From positions 1 through 53,631 of the IMG/VR virus record IMGVR_UViG_3300020042_009392: a stretch of 53,631 bases of DNA; one strand, 5' to 3'. Numbering within the stretch: position 1 is the first letter of the stretch; each line of letters begins with the position of its first letter. Positions 31,823-37,286 of this stretch are shown piece after piece. The translations under genes were made by a program, and so were the position numbers. This DNA comes from a virus (taxonomy: Duplodnaviria; Caudoviricetes). Under the pieces are notes generated by a model. The model was given only the letters and a program-made list of their open reading frames with translations, was not told the DNA's origin and made no database searches.

Positions 31823-32365
31823 ATGTCAAGAGAGCGCCGTTCCAAACTGGATCCGTTAAGTCGAGTTATAACATTGGGGTATATTGATGGCATAACAGTT
31901 AACGAGATCATACAGGATATATATGAGATTAATGCTGAGGACGCTAAAAAGCAAATAGTAGAACCGATAAAACTCATTATCAACTCACCTGGAGGAGAGA
32001 TATATAATGGGATGGCTTTAATTGATGTAATTGATTCTTCGCAGACTCCAATCCACACAATATGTCATGGTCATGCAATGTCGATGGCATTAGTGGTATT
32101 TGCGTCGGGTCATGTTAGACAGGCTAGCAAATATGCTACATTCATGTACCACGAGGGTAATTATGAGGTTGAAGGTAAAGTAGCATTTCATAAACAAGAA
32201 TTAGCTGAGTGTTTACGTATTGATAAGGCGTGTGATACTTACTTCATGTCTAAAACAAAATTCACAGATAAGATATTAAAACCACATAGGGATAGACAAG
32301 CTGAATGGTATTTCGATGTTAAAGTAGCACAGAGATATGGCTTAGTAGATGAGATCCTTGAATAA
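31823..32365 (+). CDS. clpP: ClpP-family protease subunit
   Basis: INSPGG, AMSMA (Ser), MYHE (His), YGLVDEI. Confidence 0.85.
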   Translation: MSRERRSKLDPLSRVITLGYIDGITVNEIIQDIYEINAEDAKKQIVEPIKLIINSPGGEIYNGMALIDVIDSSQTPIHTICHGHAMSMALVVFASGHVRQASKYATFMYHEGNYEVEGKVAFHKQELAECLRIDKACDTYFMSKTKFTDKILKPHRDRQAEWYFDVKVAQRYGLVDEILE

Positions 32366-33039: not shown

Positions 33040-33459
33040 ATGGACGAACACGCTAAAGGAGTACAACAATCAATAGAATCTATTATTGGTGCAGACACAA
33101 TTTTAAAACGTAGAAAGAAGACAGAAGACGACATTAATAGAGATATATTTGAAAAAATAATAATAGCTCTAGAACAAGCAAACGTCAGATCATCTATTAT
33201 AGGAGGTGACTTTAAATTAGACTTTACTTCATATGACGAAACATTCTATGAAATAATTGATAACCTAATACTAATGCAGTTTGGAAAAGAAGCATCTGAA
33301 GTTATATTCTTCTATGTCTATGAAAGAATAAATCCAGATGGTACTGTAAACGAATTAGCTGATCAAGATAATAATGTAGTTGCTCTTAATAGCCCAACTG
33401 ATTTATGGATGTTAGTTAACCATATAAAAAATAAAACTAACAAAACAAAGAAAAAATAA
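33040..33459 (+). CDS. Hypothetical protein
   Basis: ORF in operon. Confidence 0.6.
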   Translation: MDEHAKGVQQSIESIIGADTILKRRKKTEDDINRDIFEKIIIALEQANVRSSIIGGDFKLDFTSYDETFYEIIDNLILMQFGKEASEVIFFYVYERINPDGTVNELADQDNNVVALNSPTDLWMLVNHIKNKTNKTKKK

Positions 33460-33462
33460 GTT

Positions 33463-34065
33463 ATGCCTGCTACTAAACCTATATCTAGGGAGGATGTCCT
33501 ACGCGCAATGCGCTTTACAAAATCCAATCGAGCTGCAGCCAAATATCTAGGCTGCTCATACCAACACTATAAGCCATTTGCTAAAGTGTATAAAGTAGAT
33601 GAAAGCGATCACAATTCACCTTCACTATTTGATACCCACAAGAACCAAAGTGGTAAAGGCATTCCTAAATTCCTACCTAACAGACGTAGGGAACCAAATG
33701 TCAAAAACATAGTTGAGACTGGTACAGGATGGGAATCATTCACACCTGAAAAGATCAAAGCAAGATTGATAGCTGAGAGCTATTTAAAAGAAGAATGCTA
33801 CGCCTGTGGATTCTGCGAGCGTAGAGTTACTGATTATAAGATGCCTCTACTATTAAATTTTAAAGACGGTTATAAGAATAACTACCTACTAGACAATCTA
33901 GAATTGCTATGCTACAACCACTACTATCTACTAGTAGCTGACCCACTAACACCAGACCAGATACGCCACGTTGAAGACAATACAGGTGTTAGAGCCGTAG
34001 CGCACGATTGGGACCTAGACGAAGCTCAATTAGAGAACATGAAAGCATTAGGATTGTTGGATTAG
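33463..34065 (+). CDS. HTH plus degenerate HNH-like protein
   Basis: AAAKYLGCSY; CYACG...LNFKDG..NN..DNLELLCYNH. Confidence 0.6.
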   Translation: MPATKPISREDVLRAMRFTKSNRAAAKYLGCSYQHYKPFAKVYKVDESDHNSPSLFDTHKNQSGKGIPKFLPNRRREPNVKNIVETGTGWESFTPEKIKARLIAESYLKEECYACGFCERRVTDYKMPLLLNFKDGYKNNYLLDNLELLCYNHYYLLVADPLTPDQIRHVEDNTGVRAVAHDWDLDEAQLENMKALGLLD

Positions 34066-34407: not shown

Positions 34408-34644
34408 ATGGGACAGTATTTCAATGTAAAAGTTCAATTTAGAACTGAAAGCGACAATGGTAAAGTAAAAAAAGAAACAGTAAATTATCTAGTTGATGCA
34501 ATGTCAGTAACAGAAGCAGAAGCTAGAACAGTTGAATATTTATTGAGCCGTGACGAAGAGGCGTTTGAAGTAAAAGCAGCATCTGAAGCTAAGATTGCTG
34601 AAGTAATTTTAGCTGACACTGCAGAAGTAGCTTCTATCGACTAA
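34408..34644 (+). CDS. DUF4494-like protein
   Basis: F.VKV...GKVKK...YLVDAMSVTEAEAR, a Bacteroidetes-associated family. Confidence 0.75.
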   Translation: MGQYFNVKVQFRTESDNGKVKKETVNYLVDAMSVTEAEARTVEYLLSRDEEAFEVKAASEAKIAEVILADTAEVASID

Positions 34645-34701
34645 GGGTTAGGTCACTTCCCTTTCACGGAAGTAATACGGGTTCGAATCCCGTTGGAAGT
34701 A
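34630..34701 (+). tRNA. tRNA-Glu(TTC)
   Basis: GCTTCTA/TGGAAGT acceptor, CTTCC-CTTTCAC-GGAAG anticodon arm, GTTCGAATC T loop; no encoded CCA. Confidence 0.92.
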
Positions 34702-34703
34702 CA

Positions 34704-34808
34704 AGGTTGATTGGAATGTACCCTTTAACTGTAGGAAGGGCGGGTACCTCGCGGTTAGAAATGCCAATCGTAAAAGTAGATGTCCACGCACCCATCTTCT
34801 ACTTTCCT
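34704..34808 (+). ncRNA. Unknown structured RNA A with possible pseudoknot
   Basis: TGATTGG/CCAATCG, GTACCC/GGGTAC, AAAGTAGA/TCTACTTT, crossing TTAACTG/CGGTTAG. Confidence 0.55.
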
Positions 34809-34814
34809 AAAATA

Positions 34815-34894
34815 ATCAGTCAGCAGGGGATTTGTAAACCCCATTGTATAAATGACAAACACAGGTCAAAACTGATGCAATATGCTGAATTGAT
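34815..34894 (+). ncRNA. Unknown structured RNA B
   Basis: ATCAGTCAGCA/TGCTGAATTGAT closing stem, GGGG/CCCC, ATTGTAT/ATGCAAT, TGAC-AAACACAG-GTCA hairpin. Confidence 0.55.
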
Positions 34895-34900
34895 CAAATT

Positions 34901-34964
34901 TAAGGAACGTTGGGGTTACGGATTCCGTCCTCTCACGTTTAAACAACTAATGAAGGTGTCCTTA
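34901..34964 (+). ncRNA. Unknown structured RNA C
   Basis: TAAGGA/TCCTTA closing stem, AACGT/ACGTT and ACGG/CCGT inner stems. Confidence 0.4.
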
Positions 34965-34967
34965 TAC

Positions 34968-35040
34968 TCCAGAATAGCTCAGTTGGTAGAGCAACTGATT
35001 TGTAATCAGTAGGTCGTAAGTTCGATTCTTATTTCTGGAT
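34968..35040 (+). tRNA. tRNA-Thr(TGT)
   Basis: TCCAGAA/TTCTGGA, GCTC/GAGC D arm, ACTGA-TTTGTAA-TCAGT, GTTCGATTC. Confidence 0.93.
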
Positions 35041-35043
35041 CAA

Positions 35044-35144
35044 AGATGAGTGTTGACGAAACCCTATTCACCCGTAACTGTCACGTGTAACTCGAGGTGA
35101 GAGCAAGTAGTAACTTTGTTTAGTTGGCCGCTAAACCTCATCTG
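35044..35144 (+). ncRNA. Unknown structured RNA D with acceptor/T-arm-like geometry
   Basis: 7-bp AGATGAG/CTCATCT directly adjoining the GTTTAG-N7-CTAAAC hairpin; TCACC/GGTGA. Confidence 0.5.
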
Positions 35145-35149
35145 TTTAT

Positions 35150-35288
35150 AGTTAGGTGGCGAAAATTCAGTTGGCTCGGACCCAGCTGACGGCAGACGCT
35201 ATGAGAAGAACACAGCCTATCCCGATTTGCGTGGAACACAGGTCAATACTAAAGTGCGTTCATACAGGTTCGAATCCTGTCCTGACTA
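35150..35288 (+). ncRNA. tRNA-shell RNA 1 (no anticodon arm, inserted domains)
   Basis: AGTTAGG/CCTGACT+A, Leu-type D arm with inserted hairpin, ACAGG-TTCGAAT-CCTGT T arm. Confidence 0.7.
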
Positions 35289-35306
35289 CAGCCTCTCATC
35301 TATTGC

Positions 35307-35421
35307 TGTGAAGAGAACTGATGAGTATCGTTGGAGGACACAGACCTCACGAATGATGGTTTAGGGCGAAGATAGCATCCCTATCACGAAGAGTACCAAC
35401 TTAATTGTAAAGCTCTTCACA
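35307..35421 (+). ncRNA. Unknown structured RNA F
   Basis: TGTGAAGAG/CTCTTCACA 9-bp closing stem, GAGG-ACACAGA-CCTC hairpin, GATAG/CTATC. Confidence 0.55.
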
Positions 35422-35422
35422 T

Positions 35423-35580
35423 AGTCAGGTGGCGGAATTGGTAGACGCTAATGGAGTTATACTATCAAACACAGAGGGTGAGGCGTAGATGGGAACTACT
35501 ACATTATTTCTTGGACGCAAGAAAGCAATATAACCCTAACCATTTGGTATAACATACAGGTTCAAATCCTGTCCTGACTA
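35423..35580 (+). ncRNA. tRNA-shell RNA 2 (paralogous shell, different insert)
   Basis: AGTCAGG/CCTGACT+A, TGGCGGAATTGGTAGACGC D arm, ACAGG-TTCAAAT-CCTGT T arm, about 100-nt multi-hairpin insert. Confidence 0.7.
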
Positions 35581-35586
35581 CACAAA

Positions 35587-35688
35587 GCGGAGTAGTATAC
35601 CGCCTACCATAGACCGAATCCCAATCCATGCATGGATAGTCCGAAGTAACACTTCAATGGGGACACGACCTAGAGATGGTGCTAGGTT
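35587..35688 (+). ncRNA. Hairpin-rich spacer H
   Basis: GCGG/CCGC, ATCCATGCATGGAT palindrome, GAAGT/ACTTC, ACCTAG/CTAGGT. Confidence 0.35.
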
Positions 35689-35692
35689 AAAC

Positions 35693-35777
35693 GGAAAGAT
35701 GGCAGAGTGGTTGAATGCACCAGTCTTGAAAACTGGCAACTGTAATAGGTTCTGGGGTTCGAATCCCTGTCTTTCCG
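35693..35777 (+). tRNA. tRNA-Ser(TGA)
   Basis: GGAAAGA/TCTTTCC+G, CCAGT-CTTGAAA-ACTGG, long variable arm, GTTCGAATC. Confidence 0.92.
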
Positions 35778-35846
35778 CTGGTAAGAGACTTGTTCTCTCG
35801 ATCTCAATACCTAAAGTTGAGCAGCCAGTCTACGGGACTGGCATTT

Positions 35847-35917
35847 TGCCCTTTAGTATAACGGTAGTACAACGGTTTTTGGTACCGTTTGTTGTGGTTC
35901 GAATCCATGAGGGGCAA
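35847..35917 (+). tRNA. tRNA-Gln(TTG)
   Basis: TGCCCTT/AGGGGCA, ACGGT-TTTTGGT-ACCGT, GTTCGAATC. Confidence 0.9.
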
Positions 35918-35932
35918 CTAAAATTAAATTAT

Positions 35933-36157
35933 ATGTTAGTAACTTATTATCTTATATGCGTTGCATATTGCTTCTATCAATTATTTAAAAATATGAATAA
36001 TAGATACAGTGATGACCCAACAGGTGGATCACCTGAACTAGATACCATCATGGTGATAGTAATGGCTTGGGTATTAGCTCCTATTGACGTATCTTTAACT
36101 TGGATACGTTGGTATAAAGCAGCTGAGGAAGCAAGAATAAGACAATCAAAACTGTAG
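35933..36157 (+). CDS. Small two-TM membrane protein inside the RNA island
   Basis: 74 aa from ATG 35933; the longer track ORF runs through two tRNAs. Confidence 0.65.
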   Translation: MLVTYYLICVAYCFYQLFKNMNNRYSDDPTGGSPELDTIMVIVMAWVLAPIDVSLTWIRWYKAAEEARIRQSKL

Positions 36158-36310
36158 GGTGGTGAAATGGCTCTAGAGCTTGGTAGACACTCCCTCTCGT
36201 CTCGAGGGTACAGATTATGAAATAGATAAATGGTATGGGTTGACCACAAAGCCGGCTTATCTGCCATTTATTGAATCACTGTGTGTTGGTTCGACTCCAA
36301 CCCCTACAGC
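36152..36310 (+). ncRNA. tRNA-shell RNA 3 (atypical loop, giant variable arm)
   Basis: CTGTAGGG/CCCTACAG, D arm with inserted hairpin, CCCTC-TCGTCTC-GAGGG, about 75-nt variable arm, GTTGG-TTCGACT-CCAAC. Confidence 0.7.
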
Positions 36311-36313
36311 AAA

Positions 36314-36364
36314 CCGTCGAAAGCTCATCTGGCCCGAGTGAGATGGAAACGCGGATATCGGGCC
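36314..36364 (+). ncRNA. Small pseudoknot-like RNA J
   Basis: CATCT/AGATG hairpin whose loop GGCCCGA is complementary to downstream TCGGGCC. Confidence 0.45.
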
Positions 36365-36368
36365 TTAT

Positions 36369-36454
36369 GCCTTGGTGGTGAAATAGGTAGACACGCAGGA
36401 CTTAAAATCCTGTTCGCCGCAACGCGAGTGCGAGTTCGATTCTCGCCTGAGGCA
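36369..36454 (+). tRNA. tRNA-Leu(TAA)
   Basis: GCCTTGG/CTGAGGC+A, CAGGA-CTTAAAA-TCCTG, variable arm TCGC/GCGA, GTTCGATTC. Confidence 0.93.
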
Positions 36455-36455
36455 C

Positions 36456-36563
36456 AAATACACTGCTCCGAAAGGAGGACTGGACGGACGCTAAGAATGA
36501 AGAAAACGCTCTGCTACGATAAAGGTAGTATTGAGACAGTTTAACAGTACAGACAGTGTATTT
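36456..36563 (+). ncRNA. Unknown structured RNA K
   Basis: AAATACACTG/CAGTGTATTT 10-bp closing stem, CTCC-GAAA-GGAG, TGCTAC/GTAGTA. Confidence 0.55.
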
Positions 36564-36576
36564 AATATTTATCGTT

Positions 36577-36906
36577 ATGGCATGTCACTGTTTAATGTTA
36601 AAGGATCAACGTGAGTTCCTTCAATTAATGAAGGAAAGGGACAGTGATTTGATTCTTAAAATGGTTAAATGTGTACTTAGCGCATATAAACGAAATAAAG
36701 ACGGCATTGATATATTTGATATCACATTCAAGGATACAAGTGGAATGGTATTTAATATTGAAAAATCGCAGTATACCGAATTATTATCCAATTGCTTAGA
36801 CGATTTAATTGCAATTGAAGAATATGAACTGTGTGCCGATATTAAGAAAATATTAGATAAGAAGTCTAAAAAAACATCTGGGGATGTTCCGGTATTTGAT
36901 CAGTAA
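36577..36906 (+). CDS. Hypothetical protein with UVR-like motif
   Basis: AIEEYELCADIK; ATATTTAT-N4-ATG start at 36577. Confidence 0.65.
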   Translation: MACHCLMLKDQREFLQLMKERDSDLILKMVKCVLSAYKRNKDGIDIFDITFKDTSGMVFNIEKSQYTELLSNCLDDLIAIEEYELCADIKKILDKKSKKTSGDVPVFDQ

Positions 36907-37256
36907 TCTGAAGGTAGTACCACACGCGGACAAAGTAAGATAAGTCCTTAAAACCTTACGAAACAATAACTGTAGAATTATCTACTATGACCTTTGATTC
37001 TCTTATGAGTTTCATCGGTGCTGACGAGTACGCATACGCTGCTTAGTCACATCCCGTACCACTCATGGGACTTTAAAAAGAAGTGGCTAAACCGGTTTTC
37101 CTAGTTATGTCAAAACTAGGTGGTGGATATCGCTAAGACCAAAACCTTGCGACCCTATACCTCATGCACTGGGGTTAATCAGTGAGCTAAGCGTGTGAGA
37201 CGTTGGTATTATTGTTCATTATTGAGACACGAGTTCGACTCTCGTCATCTCCACCA
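36880..37256 (+). ncRNA. ssrA: tmRNA
   Basis: GGGGATG/CATCTCC-ACCA acceptor with G3.U70, GTTCGACTC T loop, tag frame 36972..37046 VELSTMTFDSLMSFIGADEYAYAA*. Confidence 0.95.
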
Positions 37257-37259
37257 ATT

Positions 37260-37286
37260 AGAGCAACCGTAGCTGGTTGCTCTTTC
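37260..37286 (+). terminator. Intrinsic terminator after tmRNA
   Basis: AGAGCAACC-GTAGCT-GGTTGCTCT followed by pyrimidines. Confidence 0.7.

Follow-up and report, generated by a model that had tools for sequence, protein, structure and literature searches.

The tRNA/tmRNA array and its three protein-coding genes

We analysed a 53.6-kb fragment (53,631 nucleotides (nt); hereafter, the window) of the tailed-phage record IMGVR_UViG_3300020042_009392 from IMG/VR, which is about 32% complete according to CheckV. Its plus strand carries, at 34.4-37.3 kb, an array of RNA genes, and three small conserved coding sequences (CDSs) occupy spacers between them: CDS 1 encodes a short-form DUF4494 protein and is followed by tRNA-Glu, CDS 2 encodes a small hydrophobic protein and is followed by a tRNA-like RNA, and CDS 3 encodes a cysteine-rich protein and is followed by the transfer-messenger RNA (tmRNA). 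These three are the only CDS-to-RNA junctions of the array. An earlier note on this DNA had claimed that each of the three genes has its stop codon inside the next RNA, and this was confirmed by ARAGORN, Rfam, the open reading frames (ORFs) and, for the tRNA-like RNA, covariation; the overlaps are 15, 5 and 27 nt long, respectively. It had also stated that the 5' ends of the RNAs fall on codon boundaries of the upstream genes, which holds for the tRNA-Glu and tmRNA junctions (offsets of 222 and 303 nt) but not for the remaining one, where the offset is 220 nt with the RNA start at 36153. Two codon-boundary junctions out of three are expected by chance about one time in four, and overlaps of 5, 7 and 10 nt found in relatives are off-boundary.

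The DUF4494 gene and tRNA-Glu

CDS 1 (34408..34644, plus strand) is an ORF for a protein of 78 amino acids, assigned to PHROG 19572 and to Pfam PF14902 (52 bits against a cut-off of 27). Its stop codon TAA (34642-44) falls inside the gene of tRNA-Glu (UUC) (34630..34702, plus strand), which was called by ARAGORN and by Rfam (RF00005, 59.6 bits, gathering score). The first 15 nt of the tRNA encode the end of the protein, A-S-I-D-stop, A-S-I-D being read from GCUUCUAUCGAC; in the relative L022 the tail is A-P-I-D and is read from L022's own tRNA-Glu. The Pfam match covers positions 1-68 of the 139 positions of the profile. Truncation of the gene by insertion of the tRNA was considered and rejected: among 77 related viral DUF4494 loci found, 75 harbor the short form of 64-99 amino acids (in the other two, one ORF is cut to 49 amino acids and one locus is itself cut off), and no C-terminal half was found elsewhere in the window. 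As the short form is the norm among relatives, the DUF4494 protein of the window is not truncated by the tRNA.

Among the same 77 loci, a tRNA lies 4-10 nt past the DUF4494 stop in 14, and L022 alone shows the same 15-nt run into tRNA-Glu; in 23 loci the next plus-strand RNA gene called by ARAGORN (tRNA or tmRNA) is 91-2354 nt away, and in 39 there is none in the locus. Thus, where a tRNA is adjacent, the overlap occurs in one of 15 relatives and the gap of 4-10 nt in 14. The closest relative, L002 (90% identity), has its TAA 8 nt ahead of an identical 5' end of tRNA-Glu. The first RNA gene 3' of DUF4494 varies among Glu, Pro, Gln, Leu, Thr, Phe, Lys, Ser, Arg and Asn tRNAs and tmRNA, which indicates that the junction has been rebuilt often and that the turnover at the head of the array is rapid. 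In the window, the overlap is not an assembly error, since the same DUF4494/tRNA-Glu junction is reproduced in an RNA-library contig from an independent run (X15 record 1, 34554-34743), for which two differences are listed (34617 and 34721), the former, inside the CDS, being synonymous.

The membrane protein gene and the tRNA-like RNA

CDS 2 (35933..36157, plus strand) is an ORF with 39 homologous loci, encoding a protein of 74 amino acids with two hydrophobic stretches (recognized by eye) and a weak match, below the cut-off, to DUF6814. Its real start is the ATG at 35933, 14 nt past the end of tRNA-Gln; a 166-amino-acid ORF ending at the same stop codon is an artefact, as it reads through tRNA-Ser and tRNA-Gln. 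The stop codon TAG (36155-57) makes up positions 3-5 of the following 157-nt tRNA-like RNA (designated shell 3; 36153..36309, plus strand), giving a 5-nt overlap. This RNA belongs to no Rfam family and was recognized by its minimum free energy (MFE) fold, homologs and covariation: ARAGORN is silent there, and Rfam RF00005 gives no match at 36153-36309 even at E<=10.

The MFE fold of shell 3 is a cloverleaf with a 7-bp acceptor stem, a D-like arm with an inserted hairpin, a T arm, an anticodon-like loop UCGUCUC (C33, U37) and a long extra arm (about 75 nt) in which GGGUUGACCACAA is conserved. Many related phage loci contain full-length homologs, 70-90% identical. The cloverleaf predicted from the window copy was used to count pairs in 18 aligned homologs: 90.6% of cells pair, and 28 of 52 pairs show compensatory changes, a level reached by none of 500 shuffles, while slid controls gave 41-50% pairing. 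The acceptor stem (7 bp) is 100% paired, contains four covarying pairs and begins at 36153. The covariation, compared with the shuffles, shows that shell 3 is a real RNA, and its start at 36153 sets the overlap at 5 nt. It is tRNA-like but not a standard tRNA, its loop lacking U33 and a purine at position 37 and its acceptor, anticodon-like and T arms covarying.

A search with this RNA returned 21 distinct junctions, 18 of them with an upstream ORF. The RNA's own TAG is used, with a 5-nt overlap, in four of the 18 (the window, L081, L091 and L097, the last with a different protein), and the remaining ones have gaps of 0-5 nt (12 junctions) or 12-15 nt (two junctions). Within the membrane protein family alone, with the window included, the overlap is found in three of 15 distinct junctions and gaps of 0-5 nt in 12; with the window excluded, two of 14 relatives at the same RNA overlap it and 12 stop before it. 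In 13 of the 39 homologous loci the gene is followed instead by tRNA-Ser at 1-11 nt, and none of these 13 overlaps.

The cysteine-rich protein gene and the tmRNA

CDS 3 (36577..36906, plus strand) is an ORF for a protein of 109 amino acids, an alpha/beta protein rich in cysteines, which was supported by alignment of 31 proteins. The tmRNA gene, with encoded CCA, occupies 36880..37256 (plus strand); it was called by ARAGORN and matches RF00023 over its full length (model positions 1-374, 77.5 bits against a cut-off of 47), so the earlier statement that the phage has a tmRNA of its own proved right. By eye, its acceptor is GGGGAUG/CAUCUCC with a G3-U pair. The TAA of CDS 3 (36904-06) lies inside the tmRNA, and the 27-nt overlap means that the 5' end of the tmRNA supplies the last eight codons together with the stop: the tail G-D-V-P-V-F-D-Q is set by its acceptor and helix 2.

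The start MACHCL is conserved in 31 homologs. In the alignment, core residues 1-95 are conserved, C3, C32, C73 and C86 are invariant and H4 is near-invariant; the homologs are 105-110 amino acids long and have a basic tail, and the RNA-encoded tail is unconserved. The AlphaFold2 (AF2) model has a mean predicted local distance difference test score (pLDDT) of 89.3, with residues 102-109 below 50, and in this model the RNA-encoded tail looks like a neutral appendage, predicted to be disordered. The earlier label of a UVR-like protein was abandoned: it rested on the EEYELCA motif only, and the search of 36577-36903 gave no Pfam family at E<=1, the UVR model being PF02151. Neither PHROG nor NCBIfam gave a match; a profile search of the PDB gave nothing below E 0.06, Foldseek against the PDB nothing at E<=0.001, and a wide VIA-align comparison with the model a best Z of 5.5, to generic helical proteins, so that no family was assigned. 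The protein may bind metal and act as a partner of the phage tmRNA.

There are 32 distinct homologs of the gene, of which 27 abut or overlap the tmRNA and five have no downstream tmRNA. With tmRNA starts in relatives taken from ARAGORN, or from Rfam where ARAGORN was silent, the overlap is present in 12 of the 27 distinct junctions, the window included (-27 nt in six, -24 in three, and -21, -10 and -7 in one each), while a gap is kept in the other 15 (5 nt in 14, 6 nt in one). With the window excluded, 11 of 26 distinct relatives overlap the tmRNA and 15 keep the gap of 5-6 nt. The -7 ('..NMG*') and -10 ('..NMGA*') forms read straight through the usual 'TAA AATAT|GGGG' junction, whereas the -21 to -27 forms have a different one ('..K-x-GD..'); counted from junction anatomy, the overlaps have at least three origins. 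The protein tree is poorly resolved (four starred branches of 28): it suggests at least four state changes, and the starred branches force only one.

As to the tag, ARAGORN calls ADEYAYAA* for the window tmRNA, not the AVELSTMTF...YAYAA given earlier. The tag frame at 36970-37046 is ambiguous, however, as by eye it stays open upstream of ADEYAYAA (VELSTMTFDSLMSFIGADEYAYAA), and a 24-residue tag of the longer type was called by ARAGORN in the relative L004; the longer version may thus still hold. The tags end in YAA or VAA, versus the usual LAA. SmpB was not found in the window, which is about 32% of the genome. The ClpP that the earlier note had placed nearby is a homolog of ClpP-family peptidases (31823..32365, plus strand, 180 amino acids, about 2 kb upstream of the array). 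Its membership in the family is clear (PF00574, E 5e-26, 86.7 bits against a cut-off of 20.2, a family-level match), but the assignment to ClpP proper is unsupported: with the NCBIfam ClpP models TIGR00493 and NF001368 it scores 70.5 bits versus 308.6 and 78.2 versus 249, both far below the cut-offs. The model of the ClpP-related head maturation protease gave 57 bits against a cut-off of 120. The PHROG matches are to both head-maturation and ATP-dependent protease families, and the gene neighbors are a nucleotide-sugar epimerase, a GtrB-like glycosyltransferase and a methyltransferase-like gene, not capsid genes. Going by these scores, the protein appears equally compatible with a head protease.

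Spacing of genes across the phage group

For comparison, 218 sequences (217 loci plus the window) were screened for ATG-started ORFs of >=65 amino acids that do not cross an upstream RNA and terminate close to an RNA gene called by ARAGORN; the ORFs may include spurious ones, e.g., 34707-35012 of the window. Among the 118 unique junctions obtained, 68 have gaps of 0-10 nt, 30 of 11-30 nt, one of more than 30 nt, and 19 overlap. The 86 tRNA junctions comprise 54 gaps of 0-10 nt, 21 of 11-30 nt, one of more than 30 nt and 10 overlaps; the 32 tmRNA junctions comprise 14 gaps of 0-10 nt, nine of 11-30 nt and nine overlaps. Overlapping ORFs may be long: one of 262 amino acids runs 45 nt into tRNA-Thr and another of 203 amino acids runs 21 nt into tRNA-Leu. 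Judged by these sequences, near-zero spacing is the rule in the phage group, and overlap is its low-frequency tail, except at the tmRNA junction, where it is common.

When loci of the same contig are combined, the states of the three junctions can be compared between genomes (given below in the order DUF4494/membrane/tmRNA, with overlaps in nt as minus and gaps as plus). The window is -15/-5/-27. L011+L081 differs at the first junction (+7/-5/-27), L002+L082 at the first two (+8/+3/-27), and L022+L090 shares the first overlap with the window (-15/+3/-24); L021+L091 overlaps only at the membrane junction (+8/-5/+5), and L004+L083 has no overlap at all (+7/+3/+5). Each of the three overlaps of the window therefore also occurs separately in relatives. 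Such free combination of states among contigs fits independent drift and not a coordinated device.

Transcription of the array

There is no room for a terminator or a promoter between CDS and RNA at any of the three junctions. The only convincing terminator-like hairpin (10 pairs, five of them G-C, plus a T-run) lies directly 3' of the tmRNA at 37260..37283 (plus strand), other plus-strand matches being located within tRNA bodies or across the 5' end of the tmRNA; from its position and structure, this hairpin is the probable end of the transcription unit. In the promoter scan, sigma-70-like sites were not enriched (7 found versus 11.8 expected). A Bacteroidota-type -7 motif, which may not be that of the host, was found at 33144, 35111 and 36711, with no correctly spaced -33 box.

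The RNA evidence consists of assembled contigs of four metatranscriptome runs, which give no RNA ends or strand. They bridge two of the three junctions: DUF4494/tRNA-Glu in X15 (34554-34743) and X18 (34452-34781), and membrane gene/shell 3 in X16 (36105-36299). The tmRNA is also covered (36965-37160), and 36484-36899 is uncovered, which carries no evidential weight. Joints seen in RNA-library contigs at 35146-35553 were considered as splicing and rejected, since they look like other organisms' tRNAs with different middles.

Known systems with mRNAs joined to tRNAs

In mitochondria, tRNA punctuation with incomplete or missing stop codons was reportedly described by Ojala and co-workers in 1981; stop completion of this kind is, to our knowledge, not expected in bacteria. 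As in mitochondria, the phage CDSs abut tRNAs; in mitochondria, excision by RNase P and RNase Z sets the mRNA 3' ends, and processed mRNAs can be stopless and need rescue factors (PMC9674279). Mitochondrial stops are completed by polyadenylation, and the rescue factors are others (PMC9674279), whereas each phage CDS carries its full stop codon within the RNA gene.

The closest bacterial parallel is provided by secG-leuU of Escherichia coli (Mohanty and Kushner 2008; PMC2241853), where the RNase P cut falls 14 nt past the stop of secG and the released mRNA decays with a half-life of <30 s. The phage array resembles the secG-leuU (and metT) co-transcripts in having mRNA directly upstream of tRNA; in E. 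coli, a single RNase P cut gives both the tRNA 5' end and a short-lived mRNA (PMC2241853). The phage array differs in that the secG mRNA keeps its stop (PMC2241853), whereas the phage stops lie 5-27 nt past the presumed cut, and in that many RNAs and ORFs are interleaved. By analogy, processing of the secG-leuU type would apply to the phage array.

Large phages in the account by Al-Shayeb et al. (2020; PMC7162821) also have a full-length tmRNA next to a tRNA array, but the passages considered describe neither CDS stops inside tmRNA or tRNA genes nor a small gene fused to the 5' end of tmRNA. A search of the literature, supplementary files aside, turned up no paper with phage CDSs that stop within tRNA or tmRNA genes and no bacterial case of RNase P maturation as a programmed source of non-stop mRNAs.

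Origin and possible meaning of the overlaps

We suppose that the overlaps probably arose by tight compaction of one tRNA/tmRNA transcription unit with drifting stop codons; simple genome compaction, which had been named earlier as the alternative, is the better supported reading. According to this explanation, the small protein genes would fill the spacers of one tightly packed tRNA/tmRNA precursor, with which they would be co-transcribed, and the stop codon would normally precede the 5' end of the following RNA by 0-10 nt, as is seen in the phage group. Once such a stop is lost by a point change, a small indel or a swap of an array member, translation would read through to the first in-frame stop in the conserved 5' part of the RNA, that is, to UAA in the D-loop of tRNA-Glu, UAG at positions 3-5 of the tRNA-like RNA or UAA in helix 2 of the tmRNA, and the RNA sequence would determine the extra residues, which would form a disordered tail. 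The proteins would be translated from the precursor before its processing, while it is being transcribed or soon afterwards, and the RNase P cut at the RNA 5' end would leave the upstream mRNA of no further use, be the stop 5 nt ahead of the cut or 5-27 nt beyond it. As the mRNA would be short-lived wherever its stop is, the position of the stop would be nearly neutral and would drift, which matches the observed scatter.

In bacteria, non-stop mRNAs are handled by trans-translation (tmRNA-SmpB and ClpXP), which would act on the phage mRNAs if these are cut before their stop. The RNAs have the acceptor and T arms on which RNase P could act. If it cuts a shared transcript at the mapped 5' ends, all three upstream mRNAs would lose their stop codons; at every junction of this kind, some non-stop mRNA would probably form and be rescued by tmRNA as a side effect. 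By analogy with secG-leuU, 3' trimming would also soon deprive an mRNA of its stop where only 0-10 nt follow it, so that shifting the stop past the cut would change little.

Several observations weigh against compaction with drift. The overlap at the tmRNA persists through substantial divergence (protein cores are 60-93% identical), which implies that at this junction it is tolerated and could be favoured. The gap in the non-overlapping lineages is strikingly fixed (5 nt in 14 of 15, 6 nt in one), which pure drift fails to explain. Overlap at all three junctions of one genome is uncommon, about 1% by a rough estimate from relatives that ignores phylogeny. A sigma-70-like site (10 of 12 matches to a consensus that may not be the host's) is present inside CDS 3 at 36758-36787. 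Finally, co-transcription was read only from RNA-library contigs, which can contain DNA and cannot show ends.

In a rival view, developed from the earlier note, the overlaps were selected: maturation by RNase P would produce non-stop mRNAs, the products of which would be tagged by the tmRNA of the phage or the host and degraded by Clp, capping the dosage of the proteins. The correct geometry at all three junctions, all of them overlapping in this genome, the phage's own full-length tmRNA with a ClpP-family gene 2 kb upstream and the recurrence of the tmRNA overlap, with at least three junction forms among 12 of 27 distinct junctions, speak in favor of this proposal. The earlier note had itself said, though, that homologs usually stopping before the RNA would refute it, and this is what two of the three genes show: the DUF4494 gene stops before the tRNA in 14 of 15 relatives (overlap in 1/15) and the membrane gene before the tRNA-like RNA in 12 of 14 (overlap in 2/14) and before tRNA-Ser in 13 of 13 (overlap in 0/13), while the tmRNA junction is mixed (11 of 26 overlap). 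The overlap states are also mosaic among contigs, the ClpP-family protein scores far under the equivalog cut-offs for ClpP, no SmpB was found in the window, and the conservation of the protein cores means that functional protein must be made despite the overlap. Besides, the mRNAs of non-overlapping relatives, with 0-10 nt past the stop, would lose it by 3' trimming as well, and the overlap would add little. We regard such selection as unlikely, and a tuned device for the destruction of these three proteins is not supported. A narrower scheme, to which we attach a low probability, is self-feedback in the overlap lineages (12 of 27), where the RNase P cut maturing the tmRNA would yield the non-stop mRNA and the tmRNA would tag the product of its own upstream gene, capping the protein in proportion to tmRNA maturation; more broadly, phages with ORF-filled tRNA arrays would carry tmRNA in order to clear the non-stop mRNAs to which processing of the array would inevitably lead.

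Two further possibilities concern the spacing itself and the cysteine-rich protein. A terminating ribosome covers about 12-15 nt downstream of the stop codon and would occlude the acceptor strand in both the overlap and the gap states; terminating ribosomes could thus keep the acceptor stem unfolded and delay RNase P until the upstream translation subsides. The selected feature would then be near-zero spacing, with or without overlap, which would time RNA release relative to protein synthesis. The tight spacing agrees with this (68 of 118 gaps are of 0-10 nt, the tmRNA gap is 5-6 nt in 15 of 15, and the gap before the tRNA-like RNA is 0-5 nt in 12), but plain compaction predicts it equally well, and many relatives have long untranslated spacers before RNA genes, e.g., 237-676 nt after DUF4494; we therefore consider such gating improbable. 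It is also conceivable, with little likelihood in our estimation, that the cysteine-rich protein and the tmRNA form one functional module, the former being, for example, a tmRNA-binding or -regulating factor, and the overlap coupling their synthesis in cis, with no bearing on tRNA junctions at large. In 27 of 32 distinct homologs the gene lies directly against the tmRNA or overlaps it, and the conserved core with four invariant cysteines, the basic tail and the confidently predicted fold with no match in the searches are in line with such a role. Yet the phages are related and syntenic, and the adjacency may be inherited gene order; five homologs have no downstream tmRNA, and no similarity to SmpB or any RNA-binding family was found.

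If compaction alone is responsible, the consequence is a practical one: stop codons within tRNA or tmRNA genes are normal at low frequency in this group of phages (19 of 118 junctions), and gene prediction that rules out any overlap between CDS and tRNA will shorten real phage genes or overlook them. If RNase P does strip the stops, the arrays would be a natural, genetically simple system for the study of mRNAs embedded in tRNA precursors and would hint at why tmRNA is carried by phages rich in tRNAs. Findings made along the way, namely, the covarying family of 157-nt tRNA-like RNAs, the tmRNA-fused cysteine-rich protein and a 60-nt motif described below, may matter more than the overlaps. For experiment, the tmRNA junction, with its fixed gap of 5-6 nt or recurrent overlap, is the part of greatest interest.

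Other features of the array and its source

The stretch was found in runs from freshwater, lake or river metagenomes. Related contigs include several of 159-183 kb, and we estimate the phage genome at about 170 kb; a distant blastn search against GenBank phages gave only tRNA-sized matches and no cultured relative.

The other members of the array, all on the plus strand, are tRNA-Thr (34968-35041), tRNA-Ser (35693-35778), tRNA-Gln (35847-35918) and tRNA-Leu (36369-36455), each called by ARAGORN and Rfam, and two more tRNA-like shells recognized by predicted fold, shell 1 (35150-35288; 25.6 bits on the Rfam tRNA model, with a cut-off of 29) and shell 2 (35423-35580). The acceptor and T-arm ends of shells 1 and 2 are nearly identical to each other, and their insertions differ. 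Standard tools miss shells 1-3 or score them below the cut-off. Just upstream of the array, a 200-amino-acid ORF (33463-34065, plus strand) has a weak match to HNH endonucleases (PHROG 14736, E 7e-7); homing endonucleases could add to the reshuffling of array members.

A 101-amino-acid ORF at 34707-35012 (plus strand), which runs 45 nt into tRNA-Thr, is probably no gene, as it covers a conserved RNA motif and a poorly conserved spacer; taken at face value, it would count as a fourth overlap. The motif, about 60 nt long and nearly invariant, is located at 34752-34811 (plus strand), with the core at 34763-34807: GCCAATCGTAAAAG..GTCCACGCACCCATC..CTTTCC. The motif folds into a hairpin, two stem positions of which show compensatory changes (UA/CG/GC and GC/AU), and has no Rfam match. 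It is present once each in 82 IMG/VR contigs, one copy per locus, within tRNA arrays and often 5-10 nt before a tRNA. The RNA-library depth over it is the highest in the region outside tRNA bins (220 in X15 and 133 in X18), and the motif may represent a leader, a small RNA or an element of a phage promoter.

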